64,000 nucleotides of DNA from Micavibrio sp. (GTDB lineage Bacteria; Pseudomonadota; Alphaproteobacteria; Micavibrionales; UBA2020). The DNA is taken from the NCBI GenBank assembly GCA_040377425.1, contig JBEIOU010000012.1, positions 16,364 to 80,363 of the forward strand, read 5' to 3'. Below are positions 2,168 through 63,192 of this stretch, piece after piece; within the stretch, counting starts at the first letter, position 1; each line of letters starts with the position of its first letter. A program made the position numbers and the translations under genes. The notes beneath the pieces are model-generated. The model was not told where the DNA came from. It made no database searches and saw only the letters and a program-made list of their open reading frames with translations.

Positions 2168-3706
<1,539 letters not shown>

Positions 3707-3894
3707 GAAACGCCGGACAGCAGTGGAAGACACGAAACACCTACCTTGTTGGTAGCATGTAAATAACAAAAAACTGGTTAACAAAACCTTGCTGCCGCGG
3801 GGTTAAAAACATGATTTTTCCAAGAAAAAGCAAATACTTAAACAGCCGCGCAAGAATTCGGCGGCCAAATAATTTTTAAATTCACATAATAAAT

Positions 3895-3923
3895 TTGACC
3901 GAGGTACAATAATACCCTATAAA
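3895..3923 (+). promoter_or_regulatory. Sigma70-type promoter for the small ORF
   Basis: TTGACC-N17-TATAAA preceded by an AT-rich UP-like tract. Confidence 0.65.
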
Positions 3924-3974
3924 GATGGGGCGAATGGTTCGCATATGCACTCACTGAAAAACAGGAGCGACTAC

Positions 3975-4166
3975 ATGAGTACCTATCCTTTTGACCGCCA
4001 GTTTCAACAGCGTCTCGAGCTGATCTTCAAAAAAGCGGAATTCGACCGCATGCAAGACCAGCGCCGCCAGAAAGCCGCACAGGCAGGCACCGAGGCCCCG
4101 AAGAACGAAGATGGCCACTGCCCCCAAAAACCTGCCGCCGCAGCCCCCGCGCCCAAACCGCGCTGA
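3975..4166 (+). CDS. Small hypothetical protein (63 aa) with Pro/Ala/Lys tail
   Basis: AGGAG RBS at 3963-3967, upstream promoter, host-like codon usage, hairpin CTCCGCC/GGCGGAG just after the stop. Confidence 0.7.
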   Translation: MSTYPFDRQFQQRLELIFKKAEFDRMQDQRRQKAAQAGTEAPKNEDGHCPQKPAAAAPAPKPR

Positions 4167-4337: not shown

Positions 4338-5276
4338 TTAGCCCTGTTCTTTGCCGCGTTCGCGGGCGAATTGCGCCAGCGCCGACATTTCGCGGTATTC
4401 GGAGATACGATTGCCCCCCGCCCGTTTGGATTCCGCCAGTGCGGTTTTCGCATAACTGACGCTGACTTCCGGCTTTTCACGCTGGATCGCTTCGGCGATG
4501 CCGAACGATGCGGTGACTTTCAGTTTCTCGCCCGTTTGCATGAAAACGGGGTTACTTTCGATTTCGGCGCGCAGACGGTCCATAACCGAACAGGCATCCA
4601 TGAAATCGACGTGTTTCAGCACCAGAATATATTCACCCTTGCCCAGATAATACGCATCGTCGAACGAGCGTACGGTGCGGGCAACCACCTGCGCCACCGA
4701 TGCGTAAATCAAATCCATGCCGCGGCGGTCGTATTTGGCCTGCAGGGCCTCCAGACCGTCAATCTCGATATTCGCGATGCTGAACGATGTGCCTTTACGG
4801 TCGAAACGGTCTTGTTCGCGTTTGATGTCGTTGCGCATACCGGCCACAGTGCGCAGCCCTGTCACAGGGTCAACCGCGGTCGAGCTATCGGCCAGATCCT
4901 GCTGCAAACGGCGGATGTGGTTAATGAAACTGTCGCATTCGTTTTCAAGACTGTCATACAGCGCCAATGTGGGCGCGGCCCCGCCCGCGCAGTGATCCAG
5001 CATCACGCGCGCGGCTTTGCACATTTCGTTATGCACATGCATCAGACGCTCAACGACAGCGCGGTCAACCGTATTGCGGTCGGCTTCGCGTTTGCACCAG
5101 ATCAGCATGGCCGACGGCGCGGTCGCGTCAGCAGGACGTGTTTGCGAACCGGGAAAGAATGACTGGCGGATGATTTCGTTGCGCCAATCGAGGATCGTTT
5201 CAATTTCTGAAACGATCATGTCCGTTGAAATAACCTGGGCGTAGGAAACAGCCACGTGAAAAACCCTTAAAACCAC
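4338..5276 (-). CDS. DgcZ-like CZB-GGDEF protein with degenerate active site (start uncertain)
   Basis: DPVTGL, RSFD I-site, GKGEY in place of GGDEF, VTASFGIA, AKTALAESKRAGGNRI; helical N-terminal CZB-like domain. Confidence 0.8.
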   Translation of the reverse strand: MVLRVFHVAVSYAQVISTDMIVSEIETILDWRNEIIRQSFFPGSQTRPADATAPSAMLIWCKREADRNTVDRAVVERLMHVHNEMCKAARVMLDHCAGGAAPTLALYDSLENECDSFINHIRRLQQDLADSSTAVDPVTGLRTVAGMRNDIKREQDRFDRKGTSFSIANIEIDGLEALQAKYDRRGMDLIYASVAQVVARTVRSFDDAYYLGKGEYILVLKHVDFMDACSVMDRLRAEIESNPVFMQTGEKLKVTASFGIAEAIQREKPEVSVSYAKTALAESKRAGGNRISEYREMSALAQFARERGKEQG

Positions 5277-5392: not shown

Positions 5393-6559
5393 TTAAATCA
5401 CCCACTCCTTTTGGACCTGATCCAGCGTATTCGTGGCAATCGCGCCACGCACCGCCCGCATCAGGCGGTTCATGGTGGCCACGTTATGGATGGACAGCAG
5501 CATCATGCCCAGCGACTCGCCGGTACGGAACAGGTGGTGGATGTATCCGCGGCTGTGATGCGTACAGGTATGGCAATCGCAGGTGCTGTCCACGGGGTCT
5601 TGATCTTTCATGTACTGCGCGTTGCGCAGGTTCATGCGCTCTTTGGGTGCGCCCTTCACCATGGCCCAGCCGTGGCGGGCGATACGCGTCGGCGACACAC
5701 AATCGAATGTATCCATGCCGCTGCGCACATTGGTGAACACGTCGATAAAACTACCGATACCCAGCAGGTGCACAGGGCGGTCAGGATGGATATGCGGGCT
5801 GCACATCGCAACCACATCGTACATCTGCTGCTTGTCACTGCCGAGCGAGCCGCCGATGGCGGTCGCAAAAAAATCACGGTCGCGCGTCCATTCACAGGAA
5901 ATCTTGCGCAGGTCTTCGTATACGCCGCCCTGTACGATACCGTACATGCGCTGCTTGCCATCGTCCTGACGTTTCCATTCTGCGAGCGAACGGTCGCCCC
6001 AACGCATGCTCATCTCCATCGATTTCGCGGTATAATCGCGGTCGACGTGGAACGGCGTGCATTCATCCAGCTGCACGATCAAATCCGCGCCCAGTTTGCG
6101 CTGAATATCGATCGAGCCTTCGGGCGTCAGGAAAAACTTTTTCCCATCCAGATACGACTGGAACGCCGCCCCCTCTTCCGAGATTTTCAAAATGGTTTTC
6201 TTGCGGTGACGCTGGCCACGGCCTTTGATTTCATCGGCGACAGAACCATAACCGAGCGAGAAAATCTGGAACCCCCCGCTGTCCGTAAACATCGGGCCAT
6301 CCCAGCCCATGAATTTATGCAGACCGCCCATTTCGGCAATCAGATCCGGCCCCGGTGACAGCATCAGGTGATAGGTGTTCGACAAGATGATGTCGGATTT
6401 CGCATCGCGCATCTGCTGCGGCGACAACCCCTTCACCGAAGCCTTGGTGCCGCAGAAAATAAAATTCGGCGTTTCGATCGTGCCATGCGGCGTGGTCAAA
6501 CGGCCAAGGCGCGCGTAAGAATTCGGGTCGCGGTGGGTGATGTCGAAGGCGAAGGTCAT
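5393..6559 (-). CDS. tgt: tRNA-guanine(34) transglycosylase
   Basis: ARLGRLTTPHG, NTYHL, TDSGGFQIFSL, IVQGG, DTFDCVSPTR, Zn motif CDCHTC...H. Confidence 0.95.
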   Translation of the reverse strand: MTFAFDITHRDPNSYARLGRLTTPHGTIETPNFIFCGTKASVKGLSPQQMRDAKSDIILSNTYHLMLSPGPDLIAEMGGLHKFMGWDGPMFTDSGGFQIFSLGYGSVADEIKGRGQRHRKKTILKISEEGAAFQSYLDGKKFFLTPEGSIDIQRKLGADLIVQLDECTPFHVDRDYTAKSMEMSMRWGDRSLAEWKRQDDGKQRMYGIVQGGVYEDLRKISCEWTRDRDFFATAIGGSLGSDKQQMYDVVAMCSPHIHPDRPVHLLGIGSFIDVFTNVRSGMDTFDCVSPTRIARHGWAMVKGAPKERMNLRNAQYMKDQDPVDSTCDCHTCTHHSRGYIHHLFRTGESLGMMLLSIHNVATMNRLMRAVRGAIATNTLDQVQKEWVI

Positions 6560-60515: not shown

Positions 60516-60731
60516 ACATTATTTGAGGGTTATGGCGTGGAATTTTATGTTTTTTCAACTTTGCCCCCGCAACCCGATTAAACAGAATACACAAATTCAA
60601 AAAAATTACACAAAATTATCCATGGGAGAAATATTATTACGCATTGGGGTACACATGCGCCCGCAGCCCTGCCCTGCGCATCTCTATAACGATGATGATT
60701 CCAAACCGATTCTCGAAACGGGCCGAAAAGG

Positions 60732-60761
60732 CTTGAAGTAGGTCGAGAATCTAGCCATATT
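60732..60761 (+). promoter_or_regulatory. Promoter of the SRP RNA gene (sigma70/RpoH-like)
   Basis: CTTGAA-N17-CCATAT(T), 7-8 nt upstream of the RNA 5' stem. Confidence 0.65.
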
Positions 60762-60768
60762 CACTCTC

Positions 60769-60863
60769 GGAAGACTGGCGGGCATATTATTCGCCAATCC
60801 GGCCAGGGCCGAGAGGCAGCAACCGTAACGAAATTCGATATGGGTCGTTCAGTCTTCCACCTT
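60769..60863 (+). ncRNA. ffs: Signal recognition particle RNA (4.5S, small type)
   Basis: Terminal stem GGAAGACTG/CAGTCTTCC followed by ACCTT; domain IV TCGCCAA-TCCGG-CCAGG-GCC-GAGA-GGC-AGCA-ACCG-TAACGA matches the alphaproteobacterial SRP RNA pattern. Confidence 0.88.
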
Positions 60864-60900
60864 CCCTATATATATGTCGATGTGCATCGCAACAAATCCG

Positions 60901-60930
60901 TTGACGAAAATTATGTCATATGTTGATATA
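60901..60930 (+). promoter_or_regulatory. Putative promoter for the riboswitch transcript
   Basis: TTGACG at 60901, 17 nt, then TGATATA; about 15 nt upstream of the aptamer. Confidence 0.5.
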
Positions 60931-60944
60931 GGGATGTTCTTCGG

Positions 60945-60998
60945 AATCGCGGGATTTGATGGATAGCTTGCTGCCGCGTCACCAACAGCTAAAGCGCC
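60945..60998 (+). ncRNA. SAM-II (SAM_alpha) riboswitch-like aptamer
   Basis: CGCGG-GATTTG-atggata-GCTTGC-tg-CCGCG-tcaccaaca-GCTAAAG mirrors the SAM_alpha layout (P1 stem, GAUUU, GCUUGC, GCUAAA); pseudoknot pairing is partly imperfect. Confidence 0.68.
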
Positions 60999-61052
60999 GC
61001 AGGGCAAAACGCTGCGGAACCATAAAACCGACAGCTGGAGAAGATAAACATC

Positions 61053-61130
61053 ATGCCCTCTACCCCCACCGACATTCAAAACCGTCAACGCCCGGCACGT
61101 CCTTCGCGTGCGGTGGCCATGCGAATGTGA
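61053..61130 (+). CDS. 25-aa peptide ORF MPSTPTDIQNRQRPARPSRAVAMRM (below the ORF-track cutoff)
   Basis: GGAGAAG SD-like element at 61037-61043, ATG 61053, TGA 61128-61130; first start downstream of the riboswitch. Confidence 0.45.
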   Translation: MPSTPTDIQNRQRPARPSRAVAMRM

Positions 61131-61237
61131 TCCTGACCATATTCCGCTGACGATTCCCCTTTTCGATTCAAAACAGCGCGCGCCATAACGGCGTGCCTTT
61201 ATATATCTCCCGCGGCATGCGGGAAGGCAGGACATAA

Positions 61238-62671
61238 ATGACCGACGTTCGTAACGACGATTTCACCCTTATCAACTCTATCGACGATGTCGTGCCGCTG
61301 TACCGGGGCAACGGCCAGAAAGAGCACGAACAATACATCGGCTTCGAAACCGAAATTTTCGTTTACCGCAAAGGCGATGACGGCAAACCACAAGGCGCTT
61401 CATCACGCGAATGCGCCGATCTGGTGCAACGCCTGAAATCCCGCGGGCTGGAACCGCAATTGGAAATGGCGAGCGCCGTTGAATACGCAAGCCCCGCCTA
61501 TCCCGTCACCCAAGTCGCAAAACTGAACGGCGAAATCACCAAAGCATGGAAAGACTACACGCAAGTTATCCGCGAAGCAGGCTTTCAAACCAACGACGCG
61601 GCACTCGCGCCGTTCGTCACGCTGGATAGCGCGAAAGAAAATCTGGTCGACCGCGACCGCGCACGCGGCCTTGTCAAAGGCATGGACCTGTTCAAGGCGC
61701 CGGAGTTCCTCAAGGTCACGCTACTGTGTACCAGCACGCAGGTGAGCCTGAGCTACGCCAGCCCCGACGACCTGCGCGATACGCTAACGACCGGCTACGC
61801 CCTTACAGGTGCGATCTTTGGTGTGTTTGCCAACTACCCCGCCTTCATCGAAGGCAAAGACGAACGCCTGACGACCAACCCCCGCGCAGCTTTCTACGAA
61901 GCCTTCGGCAAAGACGGCGGCATTCCGCAAAGCCTGCTGCAATCGACCAGCGGAGATGATTTCATCCGCCGCCATGCCGAACAGGTTTTCAAAACAGACA
62001 TGCTGTTCTACTACGACCAGAAACAAGAACTGGTCTGGCCTGAAAAACCGGTAAAGTTTGAAGAACTGCAAAAAATCGGCCTCAACACCCGCTCCAACTA
62101 CGACCTTGCCGAAACGTTTGTGTATACAGACTACAAGGTGTGCAACATCCGCAACAGCGAAGGCAAGCCCATCGGCAAACGCGTAGAAGTGCGCGGCTTT
62201 GACGCTGGCGAAACGGGCGCGCTGTCGGCTGTTCCCTTCTGCCATGCCTTGCTGCGTGACCCTGTGGGCCGCGGTGCCGTGCAGGGCCTGCTGGCCGACT
62301 ATGGCTTGCTGCCGGATCAGGACGGCTGGCAAGAGCGTTTGGTGGCCGCACGTCATAGCGCCGCCAATCACGGCGGCAAATTCCTCGACGTCCCCTTTGG
62401 CACCCGCCCCGATGGCAGCGATGGCAACCTGAAAGATTTCGCCCGCGACCTTGGCCAAATCCTCAAGGCCTATACCGTGCGCAATCCCGAACTGTCCGGC
62501 GCCCTGTCGCCTATCATCCAGATTTGTGAAACGGGCAAACCCATCGCGCAAATTAAATCCGAACAAACGCGTGATTACAACCACGCCGTCGTCCAGCTGC
62601 TGCGCGCGAACGACGATACGCCAAAAGCCGCCACGCCTGCGGTATCGGCACGTCAGGCGTTCAAACCATAA
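61238..62671 (+). CDS. Divergent glutamate--cysteine ligase family (GCS2, plant/alphaproteobacterial GshA-like) protein
   Basis: IGFETEIF, LEMASAVEYAS, CTSTQVSL, FANYP, VEVRGFDAG align with GshA motifs IGxEhE, LEPGGQxELS, TCTVQVNL, FANSP, EMRGADxG. Confidence 0.78.
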   Translation: MTDVRNDDFTLINSIDDVVPLYRGNGQKEHEQYIGFETEIFVYRKGDDGKPQGASSRECADLVQRLKSRGLEPQLEMASAVEYASPAYPVTQVAKLNGEITKAWKDYTQVIREAGFQTNDAALAPFVTLDSAKENLVDRDRARGLVKGMDLFKAPEFLKVTLLCTSTQVSLSYASPDDLRDTLTTGYALTGAIFGVFANYPAFIEGKDERLTTNPRAAFYEAFGKDGGIPQSLLQSTSGDDFIRRHAEQVFKTDMLFYYDQKQELVWPEKPVKFEELQKIGLNTRSNYDLAETFVYTDYKVCNIRNSEGKPIGKRVEVRGFDAGETGALSAVPFCHALLRDPVGRGAVQGLLADYGLLPDQDGWQERLVAARHSAANHGGKFLDVPFGTRPDGSDGNLKDFARDLGQILKAYTVRNPELSGALSPIIQICETGKPIAQIKSEQTRDYNHAVVQLLRANDDTPKAATPAVSARQAFKP

Positions 62672-62689
62672 CCCAAGAGATATCCAAAC

Positions 62690-62721
62690 AAAAATCCCCC
62701 GTTCGCGCGGGGGATTTTTTT
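62690..62721. terminator. Bidirectional intrinsic terminator
   Basis: AAAAATCCCCCG-ttcgcg-CGGGGGATTTTTTT. Confidence 0.85.
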
Positions 62722-62748
62722 ATGTTCTGTACGATTGATGCGTATCTA

Positions 62749-63192
62749 TTACTGTACGATGCTCTGCGCGGCTTCGGCGGTGTTTTCGAATGTTTGCACG
62801 AGCCCATCAATCGTCAGATAAAACAAATCAAACGCCAACCAGCCAAGGCCCATAATCACCGGCGCACAAATCAGATTCGCCATCCACGTCAGGCGCATCA
62901 GCTGATCCGCCGTCTTTGGCAGCGTGCCTGCTTTTTTACGGCGAAAATAAATCAGCTTGGTCATCATATGAATGAACATGCCAAAAACCGGCCCCAGAAA
63001 AAAGATACCCAGCGCCATCGCGCTAAATCCGGTGATACTCAGAAATTCACGCGTCTCGCTCAGCAGAAAAAAGATCGCGCACAGCGTAATCCAGTCACGC
63101 TCGCCGAAAGCCAGCGAGCGGATCAAGTTCCATTGCAAATAACTGCGCTCGGCAATATCCGCGTGTATCTTTTTTCTTTTCAGCCAGCCCAT
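62749..63192 (-). CDS. Hypothetical membrane protein (about 3 TM)
   Basis: AGGA RBS; hydrophobic helices; converges on the shared terminator. Confidence 0.65.
   Translation of the reverse strand: MGWLKRKKIHADIAERSYLQWNLIRSLAFGERDWITLCAIFFLLSETREFLSITGFSAMALGIFFLGPVFGMFIHMMTKLIYFRRKKAGTLPKTADQLMRLTWMANLICAPVIMGLGWLAFDLFYLTIDGLVQTFENTAEAAQSIVQ

Follow-up and report, generated by a model that had tools for sequence, protein, structure and literature searches.

The leader of a ligase gene in a 64,000-nucleotide (nt) stretch of the genome of Micavibrio sp. (GenBank assembly GCA_040377425.1, contig JBEIOU010000012.1, positions 16,364 to 80,363 of the forward strand; this whole stretch is referred to as the window) probably combines ribosome-mediated, methionine-sensing attenuation with a SAM-II riboswitch (SAM, S-adenosylmethionine), in a one-gene operon for a starvation-induced amide ligase with the fold of glutamate-cysteine ligase (GCL). 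The leader carries a SAM-II-like aptamer, a short upstream open reading frame (uORF) that ends in Arg-Met-stop and a series of hairpins, and this anatomy is conserved among related genomes. Two paralogous ligase genes lie behind parallel leaders rich in Phe/Tyr and in His/Trp, and the ligases are largely depleted in the amino acid to which their leader corresponds. An earlier prediction made from the letters of the window (the original prediction) had named here an aptamer, hairpins, a Shine-Dalgarno (SD) sequence, a 25-residue ORF, the ligase ORF and a terminator, and all of these were found where it had placed them. The features of the locus are as follows, stems and segments having been read from the sequence where no other source is named.

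60901-60929 (+): promoter-like site, -35 TTGACG at 60901-06, 17-nt spacer, -10-like TGATAT at 60924-29
60936-60947 (+): P0, a small hairpin GUUC-UUCG-GAAU adjoining P1, from folding and two-sided changes in relatives
60948-60998 (+): SAM-II (SAM_alpha)-like aptamer, 19.2 bits with RF00521, kept in orthologous leaders
60948-52 / 60974-78 (+): P1 stem of the aptamer, CGCGG / CCGCG
60953-59, 60966-71 and 60988-95 (+): third strand GAUUUGA, GCUUGC, and the GCUAAAG strand GCUAAAGC
Aptamer tail (+): GCUAAAGCGCC, with a pseudoknot GCUU/AAGC plus GG/CC by complementarity
60997-61035 (+): three-segment relay, a CCGCAG at 60997-61002, b CUGCGG at 61012-17, c CCGACAGC at 61028-35
60997-61017 (+): hairpin CCGCAG/CUGCGG (a:b)
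61037-61130 (+): uORF with its SD, GGAGAAG at 61037-43, ORF at 61053-61130 (25 codons, MPSTPTDIQNRQRPARPSRAVAMRM)
61122, 61125 and 61128 (+): end of the uORF, CGA, AUG and UGA
61118-61149 (+): stop hairpin, arms GCGAAUGUG / CAUAUUCCGC with UCCUGAC in the loop, from minimum-free-energy folds
61178-61205 (+): G+C-rich, terminator-like hairpin (61178-61196) followed by the tail CTTTATATAT, from a terminator scan (tail CUUUAUAUAU)
61208-61224 (+): hairpin UCCCGC-GGCAU-GCGGGA, immediately upstream of the ligase SD AAGGCAGGA at 61224-32
61238-62671 (+): ligase ORF of 477 codons, from the ORF list and confirmed
61238-62671 (+): its product, a Met-poor ligase of 477 amino acids (aa) with a predicted plant-type GCL fold, the 'M-type' paralog, from a predicted structure and profiles
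62690-62719 (+): intrinsic terminator of the ligase gene, a 13-pair stem followed by a T run

A SAM-II-like aptamer and its probable relay to the upstream reading frame

A search with the Rfam SAM_alpha model (RF00521) aligned 60939-61012 with positions 1-79 of the model; the match has 19.2 bits, the gathering score being 36 (E = 0.66 on 6 kb and 0.042 on 381 nt), and the long-loop SAM-II model gave 14.1 bits against a cut-off of 44. The likeness to SAM_alpha that had been proposed thus held in layout, with an end-to-end match that includes the three core motifs, but not in score. Being 17 bits short of the cut-off, the score alone is no evidence, since sub-threshold matches with E ≤ 1 also arose in eight of 14 control genomes (none of them over the cut-off). 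The element is accepted as real because of its conservation in orthologous leaders and because a second class of SAM-II element in these genomes reaches the cut-off. Of the 24 distinct leaders that precede orthologous ligase genes, 21 contain the aptamer, with SAM_alpha scores of 19-25 bits; these 21 belong to a single family (genera g1, g3 and g5), and the core motifs are kept across all of them despite diverged flanks. The relatives in genera g2 and g4, and the more distant locus L121, have no aptamer before the ligase. When 28 distinct aptamers of both classes were aligned, 27 of 60 columns were invariant, including all of GAUUUGA, AGCUUGC and GCUAAAGC; P1 is present together with the invariant GAUUUGA, GCUUGC and GCUAAAG strands in both classes. 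We therefore read the element as a divergent but genuine SAM-II aptamer, which would bind SAM.

What speaks against the aptamer, besides its score, is that a core so nearly invariant among orthologs leaves scant covariation of its own in P1 and the pseudoknot, and P2 has no independent covariation. P1 is invariant among orthologs and differs between the two classes (CGCGG/CCGCG vs GCGCC/GGCGC); because its register between the classes is ambiguous and depends on the alignment, this difference counts as weak covariation only. According to Huang and Lilley, two-pair P2a helices mark the translational minority of SAM-II switches and the SAM-V switches, and the triplex-forming nucleotides around the SAM site are >97% conserved. 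The P2a of the window has two pairs (GG/CC), the type of the translational SAM-II/V switches.

The second class, termed class-1, scores 27-39 bits and exceeds the cut-off in four of the 41 genomes searched. In the genome of the window it lies at G000:C1:22669-22748 on the minus strand (L001 1501-1580) and scores 30.9 bits, and in relatives (L045-L062) it reaches at most 38.8. Here the pseudoknot tail overlaps a segment a (GGCGGAC), which pairs with b (GUCCGCC), or else b pairs with c (CGGCGG), which is followed by U7: a classical antiterminator/terminator arrangement, read from the sequences of these loci without a locus-by-locus count. The aptamer motif and the downstream ORF start were located in 19 of the 19 loci listed. 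The gene that follows the class-1 switch encodes a ~139-aa ankyrin-repeat protein (Pfam Ank, from a search with the own-genome protein) and is not a met gene. An Rfam search before metK and before the two ligase paralogs returned no element. As the better SAM-II switch serves an ankyrin-repeat protein, SAM sensing in this lineage has moved off Met genes altogether. A 160-aa ORF without a family match comes after the ankyrin-repeat gene.

The ligase leaders repeat the three-segment logic of class-1 with a different ending. Pairings a:b and b:c are mutually exclusive and mirror the class-1 antiterminator and terminator, and segment c abuts the SD of the uORF, so that what follows c is that SD and not a U-tract. 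Among the ligase leaders c reads CCGACAGC or CCGCAG, and the b:c helix shows two-sided changes, to UUGCGG/CCGCAA in L012 and to GCU-GCGG/CCGC-A-AGC in L007. In the consensus fold of genus g3, a (GCCGC) pairs with GUGGC at the uORF start, enclosing the b:c helix, and the a:b loop pairs with the spacer before the uORF start, one of these pairs being U-A in 6/12 and G-C in 6/12 sequences. Since the relay segments reach the ribosome-binding site (RBS) of the uORF, the riboswitch would act there and not at the start of the ligase. SAM is taken to close the uORF site by analogy with class-1 and with all described SAM-II and SAM-V switches.

Sub-threshold SAM_alpha elements of 22-23 bits were also seen in family f6, at L116 1609-1682 and L118 1582-1654 (+), on the strand opposite the ligase homolog. 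They sit between this homolog and a divergent ~102-aa ORF without a Pfam match, and the L116 and L118 ligases have a lowish Met content (1.0-1.4%).

The probable leader peptide and its counterparts before the paralogs

The reading frame through CGAAUG is open in all 24 distinct leaders, and all 21 aptamer-bearing leaders end it with CGA-AUG-UGA. Upstream of this end the uORF varies freely, from 18 to 48 codons: MPSTPTDIQNRQRPARPSRAVAMRM in the window, VAYNISLPLSSEASAQQRM and VATNIPLQTTCHPCPSRM in other leaders. CGA makes up 4.7% of Arg codons in the long ORFs of this genome, and its constancy points to constraints of decoding or RNA rather than of the peptide; the nine-base word CGA-AUG-UGA is not rare per se (23 in the genome vs ~19 expected). 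The aptamer-free leaders retain related ends (..VMARMTSGRK, ..STRMRRGF and ..AMRMRG). Met codons number two, both within the last four codons, in the window, one in g3 and seven of 26 in L121. Because the body varies while the end is fixed, and because the sister paralogs have amino-acid-rich leaders, the 25-codon ORF is best read as a regulatory leader peptide and not as a product. The 'peptide ORF' of the original prediction therefore survives as a reading frame, at 61053-61130, but not in the role of a product, only the CGA-AUG-UGA end being fixed. The last two sense codons and the stop form part of the 5' arm of the stop hairpin, and as we read the folds, 19 of 21 relatives have CGAAUG base-paired.

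The uORFs of L006, L007 and L010 contain one to three in-frame copies of a palindromic, G+C-rich repeat of 21 nt (peptide FSRFAAI). These repeats stretch the uORF to 41-48 codons and leave the Arg-Met-stop end unmoved; in the comparison of the peptides, two relatives carried such insertions.

Between the uORF and the ligase gene lie two further hairpins. That at 61178-61196 is kept in relatives, where its tail is AUAUAUAU or not U-rich. The one directly before the ligase SD is predicted in 21 of 21 relatives with differing stem sequences (mean z -3.0), and the SD core GGCAG is invariant in 18/18 aligned rows. RNAalifold found no structure in the 53 nt before the ligase start; MAFFT had misaligned the hairpin, and per-sequence folds were used instead. 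In an unbiased scan of 24 leaders, the best complement of the ligase SD fell within -25 to +12 of the uORF stop in 11, against ~4 expected on the basis of the proportion of sequence covered, the related sequences being non-independent. A UAUAUAU run at 61199-61207, between the last two leader hairpins, is kept in the genus as AUAUAUAU and is not a U-tract; that it might be a processing site which leaves the last hairpin as a protective 5' end is only a guess.

The genome holds two further copies of the ligase gene, in tandem and ~33% identical (L044, G000:C24:56000-68000, leader ORFs at 4530-4589 and 6272-6337). Each has its own promoter-like site, a ~250-nt leader and a small ORF, MTNAKHIAVFFFSYAYFGA (Phe/Tyr-rich) in one case and MKTAFIIIAGIRHAHLHHHWH (His/Trp-rich) in the other. 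Across 48 distinct loci, 21 leaders were Phe/Tyr-rich (..YFG(A/G/C)) and 25 His-rich (..HH(H)W(H/R/Q/L); 21 by the strict pattern and four with HHW), and two loci had neither. The ends are conserved across genera, for example ..FFFSYAYFGA and ..HLHHHWH, which we take to resemble those of pheL and hisL. The stop codons of these leaders also lie in hairpins, with stems UGGCG..CGCCA, GGCGG..CCGCC or GGCUG..CAGCC in one type and ACUGGC..GCCAGU in the other, often followed by U-rich tails. Among 138 small ORFs rich in one amino acid found genome-wide, only the paralog leaders stand out, with six F/Y or seven H/W in a 10-residue window near the end. One other candidate, an ORF encoding MWWWW next to a tRNA-like stretch of the opposite strand, was taken as spurious. 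The two paralog promoters have a -35 word in common (TTGACAGAATC / TTGACAGAATCA). Searched for genome-wide, TTGACAGAATC gave one other intergenic case, a doubtful mini-ORF before a protein that appears GNAT-like by eye, and this candidate was dropped.

Sparing use of a given amino acid is known to characterise enzymes that a cell makes while this amino acid is in short supply. The 16 full-length aptamer-linked ligases contain two to four internal Met residues (0.42-0.82%; three in the window ligase), two full-length ligases without an aptamer contain 6-7, and the paralogs have 1.7-4.1% Met. Similarly, 17 full-length His-type ligases (those with strict-motif leaders) have 0.21-0.64% His, that is one to three residues, vs 1.3-2.7% in the Phe/Tyr type. 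Trp is absent from 16 of these 17, and the Phe/Tyr-type ligases are without Trp as well.

A more extreme case is found in another bacterial family, at L121 (G065:C4:202000-209000, 2297-4000, minus strand). Its leader, MNSQNRRTSMMKMPAMMPMRRGRNRV, has seven Met codons, the 474-aa ligase behind it has no internal Met, and no SAM-II element was found in the leader. Within the Met run lies AUGCCUGCC, the exact complement of the ligase SD GGCAGGCAU. This is the layout of erm-type translational attenuation, by analogy with which a ribosome stalled on hungry codons would mask the anti-SD. L121 sits on a 3.1-long branch of a quick tree and its placement is unsure; we do not claim an independent origin for its Met leader.

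The ligase, its family and the metabolism of the host

A Pfam search of the 477-aa ligase gave no match and TIGR01436 scored 15.6 bits against a cut-off of 463.15; precomputed PF04107 matches are on record for many of its orthologs. An AF2 model built on a 20-sequence alignment (pLDDT 91.4, pTM 0.90) has as its best structural match 2gwc, a plant glutamate-cysteine ligase (E 1.5e-15, TM 0.73/0.79, 18% identity), with the fold extending over the whole chain, and a sequence profile search of the PDB retrieved the same enzyme at E 3e-4. YbdK and other GCLs come next, and glutamine synthetases and the Pup ligases PafA and Dop far behind. Eight residues are invariant in all three paralogs, the outgroup members and canonical gshA, namely E37, E39, E82, R141, Q168, Y259, E317 and R319, which we take to be the metal-, ATP- and glutamate-binding core. 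The M-type ligase is probably an active ATP-dependent carboxylate-amine ligase, and its substrates would probably be glutamate and an amine other than cysteine. It has the fold of GshA (2gwc; TIGR01436; Pfam GCS2, PF04107) and shares the acidic and arginine core with canonical gshA; it differs in that its identity is 18-20%, it scores below the family cut-offs and it belongs to a set of three regulated paralogs that exist alongside a canonical gshA.

The ligase family is present in 77 of 151 genomes sampled from the order. Family f6 has a single-copy member with a short 5' untranslated region, no leader ORF and an ordinary composition. All four f6 genomes tested have gshB (343-400 bits), and in none of the four was either kind of canonical gshA found, the family member being the only GCL candidate; it is probably the real GshA there. 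The quick tree has three well-supported clades, comprising the Met type, the Phe/Tyr and His/Trp pair, and an f6-like group. Taken together with the probable role of the f6 member, the tree makes the leader-controlled paralogs look like offshoots of the GCL lineage with a new use.

The M-type ligase is not the housekeeping GshA: in the genome of the window that enzyme is encoded elsewhere, by a canonical-type gshA at C9:239098-240453, which with 427 bits falls slightly short of the cut-off. Glutathione synthetase was not found above the cut-off in this genome (best 49.9 bits vs 299), an E. coli-type gshA was not found in it and gamma-glutamyltranspeptidase (GGT, PF01019) had no match in it. 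With four GCL-like genes and neither gshB nor GGT found, there is no evident way to make or recycle glutathione, and the link of SAM to glutathione chemistry is unproven. A gamma-glutamyl cycle with uptake through GGT was considered and is unsupported for want of the PF01019 match. The genome has metK, metH and two Cys/Met enzymes dependent on pyridoxal phosphate; MetX was not found in it and MetA was not searched for. M. aeruginosavorus is reported to be unable to make Ala, Arg, His, Ile, Met, Trp and Val and to have no known amino-acid, peptide or amine transporters (Wang et al. 2011).

The regulation suggests that each paralog would be needed when one amino acid runs short, and two readings of the enzymes fit. 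They may be cognate-specific ligases (for example joining Glu and Met, in an ATP-driven capture or salvage), or starvation-proof isozymes of one reaction. A tentative proposal that we regard as unlikely is that the three paralogs are amino-acid-specific gamma-glutamyl-type ligases, which would jointly provide an undescribed, ATP-driven way of capturing or salvaging those amino acids that are scarcest and cost most, in obligate predators without known amino-acid transporters and without several biosynthetic pathways; were it right, lack of a given amino acid would induce the ligase that corresponds to it, and that ligase would contain hardly any of it. We see a real possibility that these enzymes mark out a new pathway. 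More generally, three leader-controlled, largely depleted paralogs imply an enzyme family devoted to single-amino-acid shortage. The ligase genes offer a concrete and testable handle on how Micavibrio acquires its amino acids.

Proposed mechanism, alternatives and known systems

We propose that the composite leader of ~300 nt reads two signals of methionine status. The SAM-II aptamer would sense SAM, its 3' tail overlapping segment a of the relay, and as the relay ends at the uORF RBS, the frequency of uORF translation is most likely governed by SAM, which by analogy would close the site when bound. A ribosome awaiting Met-tRNA at the final AUG would keep the stop hairpin and the adjoining sequence unavailable; in many relatives this adjoining sequence is complementary to the ligase SD, and the stall could thereby open the ligase start in the erm manner. 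In this genome a further effect of the stall may be to overcome the terminator-like hairpin at 61178-61205. Overall, expression of the ligase would occur at low SAM and scarce Met-tRNA.

A number of results weigh against this scheme. In folds that mimic the SAM-bound state (P1 forced, pseudoknot strands blocked), the accessibility of the uORF RBS did not change consistently, and in g3 the equilibrium folds point the other way, towards release of the uORF start codon by SAM. Duplexes between the loop and the RBS are only slightly better for cognate than for non-cognate pairs (-7.95 vs -6.59 kcal/mol), shuffles giving -5.67 (standard deviation 2.09). For a classical attenuator the uORF has few elongator Met codons (two in the window, one in g3), the stop hairpin is weak (mean z -1.55), and relatives do not share the U-rich tail behind 61178-61196, which leaves the terminator-like site in the window only. 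The best complements of the ligase SD in the window lie in the aptamer (-12.2 kcal/mol) or 25 nt past the stop (-12.1) and not at the stop, and the UCCUGACC after the uORF stop is interrupted by an A; for this genome we therefore infer the step from a stalled ribosome to ligase expression. The Phe/Tyr-type ligases, moreover, are not depleted in Phe or Tyr, and among 1676 crude ORFs of at least 250 aa, false ORFs included, the Met content of the M-type lies at about the 6th percentile and the His content of the His-type at about the 5th. The contrast between paralogs within one fold is a stronger argument for depletion than these percentiles.

The uORF might instead be a constitutive coupling or standby device, or an arrest peptide responding at the stop codon to a free metabolite, the riboswitch being the only sensor. 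Its one to three Met codons would suit such a role, and the invariant CGA-AUG-UGA could be a context for slow termination. Known arrest peptides, however, have a conserved body and that of the uORF is not conserved; the aptamer-free leaders keep M-R-M, L121 pairs seven Met codons with a Met-free ligase, and the paralogs show the corresponding pattern for other amino acids. In favour, the SAM-II leader of S. meliloti metA likewise combines an upstream SD/AUG1 with a start further away (Scheuer et al. 2022). We consider this alternative improbable without dismissing it. A slightly lower probability attaches to the converse, that the aptamer-like element, as a relic or with another ligand, no longer binds SAM and the leader peptide alone is in control. 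Its 19.2 bits, shortened loop and P2a reduced to two pairs would agree with this, as would the g2 and g4 relatives and L121, which do without it. A relic would decay, however, and every position of the core motifs is kept in 21 distinct leaders of three genera, including the triplex-forming nucleotides that Huang and Lilley describe as the conserved ones around the SAM site.

Greater difficulties face the idea that the short ORF encodes a precursor or substrate peptide, RiPP-like or Pup-like, which the ligase modifies, so that the riboswitch would control a peptide-ligase pair. Each of the three paralogs does have a small ORF before it, the C-terminal residues are its conserved part, and PafA and Dop, ligases of the same superfold that act on a peptide carboxylate, are among the weaker fold matches. 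Yet the bodies are unconserved, range from 18 to 48 aa and tolerate in-frame 21-nt repeats; the ends are fixed at the nucleotide level, down to an infrequent Arg codon, and lie in hairpins, some with U-rich tails; and the paralog leaders resemble those of pheL and hisL. The enzymes are also depleted in the residues in which the peptides are rich, as expected of starvation sensing and not of a substrate, and the single-copy f6 members have no such ORF. We accordingly think a product peptide very unlikely. We reject as hardly credible the suggestion in the original prediction that an orphan switch was left before the ligase by chance when a met gene was deleted. In its favour, SAM-II elements normally precede Met/SAM genes (Corbino et al. 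2005), and no MetX was found here. What was upheld, in 21 distinct orthologous leaders, is that prediction's claim of a SAM-II-type aptamer at the head of a leader which has a short ORF and is followed by a divergent GCL-like ligase: the order of aptamer, uORF and ligase, which it had suggested checking in relatives, is kept in g1, g3 and g5, and no relative has a met gene at the locus (21/21 aptamer-bearing leaders precede the ligase). The relay also touches the uORF RBS with some covariation, and the ligase is Met-depleted.

The leader that we propose, with Met-sensing attenuation and a SAM-II switch, is made of parts of known kinds: a SAM-II aptamer, leader-peptide attenuation, and the pairing of a riboswitch with a codon-sensing uORF. 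As in trpL, pheL, hisL and erm-type attenuation, a short ORF places codons for the sensed amino acid beside alternative RNA helices; unlike in trpL, pheL and hisL, the targets are paralogous ligases and not biosynthetic operons, and the output would be at least partly translational. The mgtA leader of Salmonella joins a riboswitch to the codon-sensing uORF mgtL, and that of mgtCBR combines ATP sensing with a codon-sensing uORF (mgtP). Both resemble the present leader in having a ligand-sensing RNA together with a uORF responsive to tRNA charging, and differ in ligand, amino acid and function; here both inputs would report on the Met/SAM pathway. With the SAM-II riboswitch (RF00521, the metA element of alpha-proteobacteria; Corbino et al. 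2005) the aptamer shares P1, the GAUUUGA, GCUUGC and GCUAAAG strands and its place right after the promoter. It differs from SAM-II in its sub-cut-off score, shorter loop, two-pair P2a and extra P0, in a platform that ends at the uORF RBS and not at a terminator or the SD of the main gene, and in its target, a GCL-like ligase rather than a Met/SAM gene. The S. meliloti metA leader (Scheuer et al. 2022, PMC9373788) likewise has a distant upstream SD/AUG1, a terminator between and control of translation. There, AUG1 shares the reading frame of metA and the abstract proposes no separate leader peptide, unlike in the window, where a separate uORF with a fixed Arg-Met-stop end lies 107 nt before the ligase gene.

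In the literature searched we found no description of a Met-codon leader peptide and no paper joining SAM-II, a Met leader peptide and a GCL-like ligase; further non-Met genes behind SAM-II may stand in the supplements of Corbino 2005 and Huang 2018. New elements are a SAM-II relay that leads to the RBS of a uORF, the Met-ending or Met-rich leader peptide, and three amino-acid-specific leaders on GCL-like paralogs. If the proposed mechanism holds, riboswitch and tRNA-charging control would be joined in a manner that is new, by a SAM-II switch acting on the RBS of a leader peptide that ends in Met.

At the upstream end of the locus, the promoter-like TTGACG had been pointed out at 60901. It is present, and a TTGAC(G/A) -35 with a TATAT-type -10 is kept in relatives, but a promoter consensus scan of 60700-62800 returned 0 sites, because the -10 TGATAT fails the rule of the scan. 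The 5' end of the transcript is probably at P0 (60936-60947), whose stem varies by eye in the alignment of relatives between GUUC/GAAU, GCUCC/GGAGC, GCUC/GAGC, GCUCG/CGAGC and GUUC/GAAC. Downstream, a 147-aa ORF at 62749-63192 (-), convergent with the ligase gene and hydrophobic-looking by eye, had no match in Pfam or NCBIfam. Directly upstream of the leader promoter lies a gene for the small bacterial signal recognition particle (SRP) RNA (60766-60864, +; RF00169, 47 bits vs a cut-off of 40), which is the same neighbour in relatives within the genus.

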